This document shows positions 45,833 through 47,621 of a DNA stretch of 64,000 bases, in pieces (positions within the stretch are counted from its first letter, which is position 1; each line of letters starts with the position of its first letter). The notes beneath the pieces were generated by a model that was not told the DNA's origin, searched no databases, and saw only the letters and a list, made by a program, of their open reading frames with translations. Source of the stretch: Escherichia coli (lineage in GTDB: Bacteria; Pseudomonadota; Gammaproteobacteria; Enterobacterales; Enterobacteriaceae); assembly GCF_024298765.1 (NCBI RefSeq), contig NZ_CP101210.1. One strand, written 5' to 3'. Position numbers and translations under genes: made by a program.

Positions 45833-47149
45833 TTAAGACTTCGTCGATTTCTCAAAGCGGCGTAGTAACTGATTCCCACGCTCAACGGCGGTATCCAGCG
45901 CCTGCTGTGGCGTCTTCTTACCGGTCCACACGCTCTCAAGCTCTTCATCCACAATCGCTCTGATCTGCGGCATGTTGCCCAGACGTAGTCCTTTGGTGAA
46001 CGGTAACGACGGTTTGTTCAGCATCTGACGTGTCGCGATATCCGCCCCTGGGTTTTTCTCGTAAAAGCCCTGCTCACGGGTCAGGTCATACGCCGCTTTG
46101 GTGATTGGCAGATAACCGGTTTTCTGGTGCCACTCGGCAGCATTTTCTGGCTTCGCGAGGAAGTCGAGGAACTTCGCCACGCCGGTATACGTTTCTTTAT
46201 CTTTGCCCTGCATCACCCACAGGCTGGCTCCGCCGATAATGGCGTTTTGTGGTGCATCTTTCGCGTCAGCGTCGTAAGGCATCATGCCTACGCCGTAGTT
46301 GAATTTGGCGTACTCGCGAATGCTGGCAAGAGAACCAGAAGAGGCAGTCGTCATTGCGCAATCACCGTTATAGAACTTCTCGGTGGATTCATCCTTACGC
46401 CCGACGTAGCTGAAATCGCCTTTCTTGTTCATCTCTTCGAGCATGGCGATGTGTTTCACCTGCTCCGGCTTGTTGAACTCCAGCACCGCATCTGTGCCGT
46501 CAAAGCCGTTGTTTTTGCTGGCAAACGGCAGACCGTTCCAGGCGCTAAAGTTTTCCAGTTGGATCCAGCCCTGCCAGCCGCTGGAGTAGCCGCACTTCAT
46601 ACCGGAGGCTTTCAGTTTCGCGGCATAGTCCGCCAGATCCTGCCAGGTTTTCGGCGGCTGTTCCGGGTCTAATCCTGCTTTCTTGAAAGCATCTTTGTTG
46701 TAATAGAGAACAGGAGTCGAGCTGTTGAACGGCTGGGAGAGTAAGTGTCCGGTTTTACTGTCGGAGTAGTAGCCTGAAACCGTCGGCACAAACTGCGACT
46801 CATCAAAGTTAATCCCCGCCTCTTTAAACACGTCATACACCGGTTTAATGGCTTTCGACGCCATCATGGTGGCGGTGCCAACTTCATAAACCTGCAAAAT
46901 AGCCGGAGCGTTACCGGTACGAAATGCTGCGATCCCCGCACTTAAACTCTCTTCGTAGTTGCCTTTATAAGTCGGTATAATTTTGTAATCCGGGTTTTCG
47001 GCGTTAAAACGTTGGACCAGAGAATTCACCTCTTTACCCAGTTCCCCTTCCATAGAGTGCCAGAACGGAATGGTCGTCACTGCCTGTGCATTCCCCATTA
47101 ACGTCAGTCCGAGCACTAGTGCTGAAGCTGTATAATGTAACGGTTTCAT
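45833..47149 (-). CDS. ugpB: sn-glycerol-3-phosphate ABC transporter periplasmic binding protein UgpB
   Basis: 438 aa, near-identical to E. coli UgpB as recalled ([39 protein letters not shown]...); no ugpA/E/C/Q follow. Confidence 0.9.
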
Positions 47150-47154
47150 CGTTT

Positions 47155-47282
47155 ATCTCTCTTGCTTGTTGTACCTGATGAGCGAATTCACACGTTTCAT
47201 GCTCGTGGGATTAAATATCATGCCCGAATTGCAGAAAAATAACTTTTTTATTACATGTGTTAGACAGTAAAGTGTTAGAAAG
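47155..47282 (-). promoter_or_regulatory. ugpB promoter region with Pho-box-like repeats
   Basis: Reverse strand reads CTGTCATCTTTCTAACACTTTACTGTCTAACACATGTAAT..., resembling the PhoB-dependent ugp promoter. Confidence 0.4.
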
Positions 47283-47621
47283 ATGACAGAGCAGTGACGG
47301 CACAGGTGAGACGTGGTGGATTGAATTTGATCCTGCTGTTGACAGTGAAATCCGCAAGACATGTCCGGCAGTGATCGTGAGCAATGACGCAGCAAACAGG
47401 AACCTCGCTCGAGTAGTCGTCGTTCCTCTGACCAGTAACACAGAGCGAGTGTATCCAAGTGAGGCTGTTGTGACCGTAGGTGTCAGAGCAGCAAAGCGAT
47501 TGTAGAGCAGATTATGGCGGCGGATAAGTCCTGTCTCAAAACACATATTGGCTCGTTGTCCAAAGCAGATATGTTGTCTGTTGAGGACGCAATCAAGATC
47601 CATCTTGGTTTACTGCGGTAA
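47283..47621 (+). pseudogene. PemK/MazF-family toxin gene relic (frameshifted, no antitoxin gene)
   Basis: Translations in two frames: ...WIEFDPAVDSEIRKTCPAVIVSNDAANRNLARVVVVPLTSNTERVYPSEAVVTV... then ...IGSLSKADMLSVEDAIKIHLGLLR*; the 5' ATG is out of frame. Confidence 0.4.

Follow-up and report, generated by a model that had tools for sequence, protein, structure and literature searches.

A probable second ugpB of divergent Escherichia origin on a PAI I(5155)-like island of Escherichia coli carriers that keep the core ugp operon

The stretch of Escherichia coli DNA analysed here (hereafter "the window"; 64,000 nucleotides) is a mosaic, PAI I(5155)-like island, which adjoins yghD/pheV in strain APEC O2-211. 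Its genes include hlyE, fecIRABCDE, pgtPCBA, a PTS/transketolase cluster, a YadA-like adhesin and nanE/PTS, as well as a phytase-like esterase, ugpB, a TonB-dependent haem receptor with a DUF4198 partner, and an aatA-like autotransporter. The ugpB gene lies among the following features:

41659-43002, minus strand: phytase-like esterase gene, intact, 447 aa (PF13449, Pfam 207 bits)
43112-44441, minus strand: IS2, separating the phytase-like gene from the IS110 relic (inverted repeats 43119-43150 and 44401-44432)
44697-45777, minus strand: IS110-family relic, a 79-nt leader plus a transposase pseudogene (44697-45698), from RefSeq and sequence reading
45778-45832, minus strand: remnant of the ugpB-ugpA spacer, 55 nt, ending inside a REP element (…GTGTAGGCCG|)
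45833-47149, minus strand: island ugpB allele, an uninterrupted ORF of 438 codons (438 aa), signal peptide ending AQA|VTT
47150-47313, minus strand: captured ugpB upstream region with 5'UTR, -10 region and Pho-box array, from alignments and a pattern search
47314-47620, plus strand: mazF/pemK-like toxin relic, from three-frame translation (Pfam PF02452, 49 bits)
48283-49326, plus strand: IS3-family transposase pseudogene, the other boundary of the module (RefSeq: frameshifted, with an internal stop)

The island gene encodes a complete UgpB. Its product (RefSeq WP_000803221.1) scores 931.9 bits over residues 2-437 against the UgpB equivalog model of NCBIfam (NF008211), for which the curated cut-off is 411; the protein thus belongs, over its full length, to the UgpB family, and the gene is intact, as the earlier note on this DNA had claimed. 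The solved structures of E. coli UgpB also match it strongly (4AQ4, 937 bits; 6X84, 923 bits). In the alignment, W172, Y42 and R374 (mature numbering) are kept, which we take to be binding-site residues of E. coli UgpB further to E66 and W169. The latter two (mature numbering), likewise kept, have been named as residues of the UgpB binding site (bioRxiv 10.1101/529602). Compared with the K-12 gene, the coding sequence is 94.7% identical in nucleotides and 97.0% in amino acids, with 13 replacements, among them D19N, A22V, V35I, Q44E, N45S, A166S, N253S, P358S and V375A (mature numbering). The description of the gene as nearly identical to the core gene therefore overstated the resemblance.

Homology to the core livF-ugpB-ugpA region is confined to window positions 45778-47313, or 1.54 kb, as established by BLAST against 5426 complete E. 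coli genomes and by direct alignment. The captured piece consists of 164 nt before the ATG, the complete ugpB and 55 nt past the stop codon; neither ugpA, ugpE, ugpC or ugpQ nor livF occurs anywhere within the 64-kb window. On the downstream side, homology to K-12 and E. albertii ends exactly after GTAGGCCG, where the cores go on GATAAGCG…; past …GTGTAGGCCG, the island passes into the sequence of the IS110 relic. The upstream break abuts the truncated codons of mazF. The island ugpB is not the first gene of a ugpBAECQ operon, the IS110 relic standing where ugpA belongs.

The upstream region was aligned to its counterparts from K-12, E. albertii, a divergent Escherichia representative and the core locus of APEC O2-211. 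On the minus strand, positions 47300-47246 hold five 7-bp Pho half-sites spaced in an 11-bp phase; they start at 47300, 47289, 47278, 47267 and 47256 and read, in that order, CCGTCAC, CTGTCAT, CTAACAC, CTGTCTA and ATGTAAT. The array aligns position for position with the ugp Pho-box array of K-12, and the match to the CTGTCAT consensus over the five half-sites, counted by hand from the alignments, is 26/35 in the island and 25/35 in K-12. An 18-bp Pho-box pattern matches the window six times against a chance expectation of 1.3, and two of the six matches are at the island ugpB. By its sequence, then, this is a promoter of the Pho-regulon type, in which phased CTGTCAT repeats replace the -35 element, and the half-sites are putative PhoB sites. 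The earlier statement that a Pho-box-like upstream region is preserved was borne out, except that the core homology runs some 23 nt past the end given there (47290), to 47313.

The upstream region as a whole is much changed. Over its 164 nt, 26-27 substitutions and 7 indel positions separate the island from the E. coli cores, and promoter identity between island and core is about 83% (about 17% diverged). Among the cores, the same region shows 2-5 differences, and between E. albertii and the cores 12-13; the divergence of the island promoter is about three times that of E. albertii. Part of the difference is an insertion of 4 nt in the island 5'UTR, situated 11 nt ahead of the Shine-Dalgarno sequence and found in no sampled core.

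Both flanks of the captured piece are degenerate, and here the earlier note read the sequence correctly: an IS110-family relic replaces ugpA downstream, and a MazF-like pseudogene stands upstream in place of the liv operon. The IS110 transposase pseudogene, oriented as ugpB, has a frameshift and an internal stop. Relatives of the relic, at 93.5% identity on E. coli plasmids, cover only its 3' 520 nt, which leaves its ends undefinable, and no intact relative spanning its 5' half was found. The mazF relic lacks its first few codons, has a frameshift near 47500 and matches positions 6-59 of the 109 in the PF02452 profile; RefSeq annotates a PemK/MazF family toxin fragment of 51 to 61 aa, depending on the genome, at identical loci. 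It does not form a type II toxin-antitoxin system, the toxin being truncated and frameshifted and no antitoxin gene being present; the position of the antitoxin is taken up by the ugpB promoter piece. Within E. coli the relic is restricted to this island context (195 genomes), and no mazF or IS110 homologue stands beside ugpB in 80 species loci. The idea that the relic was brought along from the livF-ugpB spacer of a donor found no support.

At identical loci, the RefSeq order is IS110 pseudogene, ugpB, PemK/MazF fragment, a hypothetical 35-aa ORF and an IS3-type pseudogene. On its right side, the ugpB-IS110 unit always has the phytase-like gene as a neighbour in the contexts read. The IS2 element is lineage-specific and lies outside the ugpB module: it is missing from most carriers and common to 19 complete genomes, which include records with two ugpB places. 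One of these sharers, strain 104 (NZ_CP029164.1), is identical to window positions 1-52543 save for 8 mismatches, and it too has two ugpB places.

The distribution of the module bears directly on what the island gene is. The ugpB piece is present at an identity of at least 95% in 205 of the 5426 complete E. coli genomes (about 4%), always on the chromosome, and the records that hold it have two or more ugpB places; in the remaining complete genomes the sole match is the core gene, at 92-93.6% identity. The whole 3.8-kb module recurs at 100% identity in 194 complete genomes, and the same junctions are present in about 200 genomes that differ in host and serotype. The exact island protein was found in 5223 collection blocks, and in the contexts read it was always beside the IS110 relic and the phytase-like gene and never beside ugpA; at one locus (L088) the mazF relic has been lost beside it. 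In APEC O2-211, the core locus livF-(phd/doc)-ugpB-ugpA-ugpE-ugpC-ugpQ is intact at 294816-299849, and the island ugpB lies at 4347338-4348654, beside the yghD-gsp-sslE region, where pheV lies in K-12. This places the island on the pheV side, and a location at selC was rejected. Further, ugpAECQ is covered to at least 80% in 5421 of the 5426 complete genomes.

Our reading, to which we assign a probability of about 0.8, is that the feature is a second, island-borne ugpB of divergent Escherichia origin, functional-looking but dispensable, in strains that keep the core operon. With ugpAEC in the core of the carrier APEC O2-211 and ugpAECQ in nearly all genomes, as given above, the gene does not encode an orphan substrate-binding protein. 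Since carriers retain the core ugp operon, the protein would not be without a transporter, contrary to what the earlier note had proposed. That note had also named, in advance, a duplicate ugpB as a finding that would speak against it, and the island gene is indeed a second ugpB. Of the two origins it had offered, capture of a core-gene fragment into the island is the right one: the module is identical in about 200 genomes, and their records have a second ugpB place.

The dispensability of the island gene is apparent from a sister form of the island. In strain EC6563 (NZ_CP095856.1) and at another locus (L120), the same ugpB, IS110 junction and phytase-like neighbour are joined to a different left side, which comprises an intact PhoX alkaline phosphatase gene (Pfam 553 bits), a permease relic, an ABC ATPase relic and then about 360 nt of further sequence. 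Next to ugpB there are 258 nt of livF-ugpB-type spacer, reaching into the REP element of that spacer, so that in this longer form both ends of the captured piece are at REP elements. Because the longer form keeps more of the original spacer, the mazF junction at 47313 of the window is a later truncation. Window-type and EC6563-type copies differ at 20/163 upstream positions, 4/60 of the first coding positions and about 5/1250 of the remaining nucleotides, an unevenness that implies a recombination break near codons 10-19. A composite transposon with two IS110 copies was considered and rejected, the IS110 relic being on the right side only; an IS110 remnant was looked for to the left of the longer EC6563-type segment, and none was found there.

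The PhoX-linked region occurs in about 54 complete genomes. Its ugpB has a 459-nt internal deletion in 8 of the 10 contexts read, accompanied in 7 of those 8 by a 3' truncation and many further substitutions, and in a ninth context a transposase gene (PF00872, Transposase_mut) interrupts the region short of ugpB. In CP073976.1, the Pho promoter has been lost entirely to an IS1 element that lies 16 nt before the ATG. These deletions, truncations and the loss of a promoter to IS1 indicate that the island ugpB is dispensable and is repeatedly being lost.

Is the intact copy, then, under selection? A possible but not favoured answer is that it is a neutral passenger, intact only for want of time to decay and either unexpressed or without effect on fitness. 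Such a view draws on the pseudogenes among which the copy sits, on its redundancy with the core copy, and on the decay and promoter loss just described. It also draws on the substitution pattern: of the changes unique to the island branch, 12 are nonsynonymous and 19 synonymous, whereas the other three Escherichia branches have 10 and 60 (Fisher p = 0.009). This nonsynonymous excess, together with the divergence of the promoter, points to relaxed constraint. Evidence for constraint, on the other side, comes from an overall dN/dS of 0.07 and from the retention of E66 and W169. Against the passenger view, the Pho half-sites hold their match to the consensus despite the roughly 16% divergence of the region, and the exact protein is very widespread. 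Variation among island copies is, moreover, mostly synonymous: in 11 copies picked independently of their protein sequence, 9 synonymous and 4 nonsynonymous sites vary, with no frameshift, indel or stop, and neither an indel nor a stop occurs in any of the 21 copies read, whereas the adjoining relic DNA does carry indels. Most synonymous variants in the island copies match the base found in the core, and conversion tracts from the resident core gene could thus pass for purifying selection. A surplus of synonymous polymorphism over the flanks, suspected from one metagenomic copy, vanished when more copies were included. We place a fitness benefit and a mere passenger at about even odds.

What a benefit might consist of can be sketched from the parts that remain. 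Gene, signal peptide, binding-site residues and Pho-box array are all intact, and UgpAEC is available in the cell. When phosphate runs short, PhoB would act on the Pho boxes and switch on the island gene; its product, once exported, would be expected to bind glycerol-3-phosphate and glycerophosphodiesters and may pass them to the core UgpAE-C2 translocator. The island copy would in this way add to the periplasmic pool of UgpB. It may also add to a second activity of that pool, for UgpB is reported to have a transporter-independent, bile-responsive chaperone activity in the periplasm, and its overexpression is reported to confer bile resistance (review PMC8144458).

A bolder extension of the preferred reading, which we consider improbable, is that the island ugpB is the surviving binding-protein arm of an accessory, Pho-controlled set for scavenging organophosphates and raises fitness. 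The older island form links PhoX, the ABC-transporter relics, UgpB and the secreted phytase-like esterase, and pgtPCBA is on the same island. In poultry-associated and extraintestinal E. coli, fitness could be raised if the one UgpAEC translocator of the core were supplied by two binding proteins or, alternatively and independently of transport, by a larger pool of the bile-responsive periplasmic chaperone.

There are precedents for two binding proteins sharing one ABC translocator: LivJ and LivK share LivHMGF, and HisJ and ArgT share HisQMP. By analogy with these pairs, a second binding protein encoded apart from its permease could dock to UgpAE-C2. The members of each pair differ in specificity, and both are maintained; the two UgpBs, in contrast, are 97% identical and not known to differ in specificity, and the extra copy decays in sister lineages. 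Compared with core E. coli UgpB (4AQ4, 6X84), the island copy is alike in family, length, signal peptide and phased Pho-box layout, but the core gene is followed by ugpAECQ, and the island copy is without the upstream part of the livF-ugpB spacer.

As to its origin, the island allele is 93.5-95.0% identical in nucleotides to the E. coli cores, including 94.8% to the carrier's own core copy in APEC O2-211. The cores are 95.6-98.2% identical among themselves, and E. albertii is 94.6-94.9% identical to them. Against K-12, dS is 0.22 and dN 0.015 (dN/dS 0.067). The protein is 97% identical to that of E. coli and 96% to that of E. albertii, and no more than 91% identical to those of other genera among the matches listed. 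The allele falls outside the range of the sampled E. coli cores, and its sequence identifies the probable donor as a divergent Escherichia lineage: the distance to the cores is about that of E. albertii, which argues for such a source and against recent duplication in the host. The donor comparison covered two Escherichia representatives among the matches listed, leaving out the alleles of E. fergusonii, E. marmotae and E. ruysiae. In a neighbour-joining tree with bootstrap, which was star-like, the island allele took a position with less than 50% support among deep Escherichia ugpB lineages, so the donor can be placed only as an Escherichia lineage beyond the sampled E. coli cores. A scan of metagenomes for an uninterrupted donor locus, in which the island-specific 3' flank would run into an intact REP element, gave no match, and a second scan with a 22-mer specific to the island 5'UTR gave four matches, all in the island context and none at a donor-type locus.

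That the host's own ugpB was recently copied into the island and then diverged rapidly is very unlikely. The gene does belong clearly to the Escherichia ugpB group, as the protein identities given above show, but its synonymous divergence of about 0.2 from the carrier's core and from other cores equals that to E. albertii, the allele nests, at a weakly supported tree position, in no core clade, and the 4-nt insertion and many further changes in its promoter are missing from all sampled cores. The other origin offered earlier, that the window is a rearranged junction at which the only ugp operon was severed, leaving UgpB without UgpAEC, fits the lack of ugpA, ugpE, ugpC, ugpQ and livF inside the window but can be dismissed, given the two ugpB places in carriers, the intact livF-ugpBAECQ of APEC O2-211, the near-universal ugpAECQ, the 5-6.5% divergence of the island allele from every sampled core allele and the recurrence of the same junctions in about 200 genomes of varied host and serotype.

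The feature is thus ordinary: a diverged duplicate of a core binding-protein gene, carried on an island and made redundant by an intact core operon. It holds a caution: a core-looking gene without its operon may be a second, horizontally moved allele rather than a broken pathway. What it adds to the picture of these strains is that avian and extraintestinal strains commonly have a PAI I(5155)-like island with an extra ugpB behind a Pho-box promoter. Avian pathogenic strain IMT5155, the source of PAI I(5155) (Zhu Ge et al. 2014), has the same mazF-relic module. The main text of the paper on that island (PMC4232414) describes a gene set shared with the window, namely the aatA-like autotransporter, fecIRABCDE and pgtABCP, and makes no mention of ugpB; our literature search found no paper that mentions an extra island ugpB.

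A mildly novel thread is the tie of this gene to other phosphorus-scavenging genes, together with the series of intact and decayed copies. The island ugpB keeps company with nutrient-scavenging genes, namely fec, pgt, the haem receptor and the phytase-like esterase, and in the sister forms also with PhoX. Intact, promoter-less and deleted copies coexist and make up a natural series on UgpB dosage for studies of phosphate scavenging and bile tolerance. Gene conversion could, in addition, act between the two ugpB copies of a carrier, which are about 95% identical.

One more comparison concerns the right end of the captured piece, which is within a REP element and directly next to the 5' end of the IS110-family relic. 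IS621 is an IS110-family element that targets REP sequences, and a REP-targeted insertion of this kind is a possible origin of the junction. The ends of the relic are undefinable, however, no second IS110 copy bounds the left side, and the break is about 6 nt from the IS621 target core.

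The island copy of ugpB exists in diverged versions, and the differences between them are unevenly distributed. When the window-type copies (window 47093-47313) are compared with the EC6563-type copies (island loci L110 and L111, the latter being NZ_CP095856.1), 20 of 163 positions differ in the upstream region and 4 within the first 60 nt of the coding sequence, whereas the remaining 1250 nt carry only ~5 differences. The concentration of differences at the 5' end implies recombination near codons 10-19 of the island gene.

The core gene is itself unusually diverse. Among the core loci L002, L096 and L101-L103, E. 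coli ugpB alleles share 95.6-98.2% nucleotide identity (95.9% between K-12 and APEC O1), and the repeat content of the ugpB-ugpA spacer varies between strains. In the core livF-ugpB spacer of APEC O2-211 (NZ_CP006834.2, locus L096, 22012-22607), a phd/doc toxin-antitoxin pair lies ~200 nt 5' of the ugpB ATG; K-12 has no phd/doc there. Toxin-antitoxin cassettes apparently use this spacer as a landing site.

The PhoX-linked ugpB region is present in ~54 complete genomes. This sister form (NZ_CP095856.1, 10480-15714, and the further contexts L112-L121) places the island ugpB together with PhoX alkaline phosphatase, whose gene is intact, and with an ABC permease and ATPase that survive as relics. 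In 8 of 10 PhoX-linked contexts read, a 459-nt deletion lies within ugpB, and 7 of those 8 also have a 3' truncation of the gene. A further carrier of the island ugpB, CP073976.1 (locus L088, 5272-6000), has an IS1 positioned 16 nt 5' of the island ugpB ATG; the entire Pho promoter and the mazF relic have been replaced by this element, and the ORF remains intact despite it.

The following features of the window accompany the island gene:

20808-27031, pgtP-pgtCBA, a phosphoglycerate transporter and its two-component regulator
41659-43002 (-), intact gene for a secreted phytase-like esterase (PF13449, 447 aa)
43112-44441, IS2, with the phytase-like gene on one side and the IS110 relic on the other
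49493-52273 (+), gene of the TonB-dependent haem/haemoglobin receptor family, followed by a DUF4198 gene
52544-55242, ~2.7-kb insertion with no counterpart in the otherwise identical strain 104

The phytase-like gene has the same orientation as ugpB, and their linkage is kept in all island forms read; no Pho box with two or fewer mismatches to the 18-bp pattern was found 5' of it. The pgt genes constitute a second organophosphate uptake system of the ugpB-carrying island.

The IS2 is common to only 19 complete genomes, and the ~2.7-kb insertion resembles in part an IS66-type region at another place on the island; either element is useful as a lineage marker. Of the IS110-family relic, only the 3' 520 nt (44560-45080) have related sequences, which lie on many E. 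coli plasmids and are 93.5% identical; its 5' half was found only on the ugpB-carrying island. The haem receptor family protein (656 aa; TIGR01785 at 414 bits) and its DUF4198 neighbor are encoded by intact genes surrounded by IS relics.
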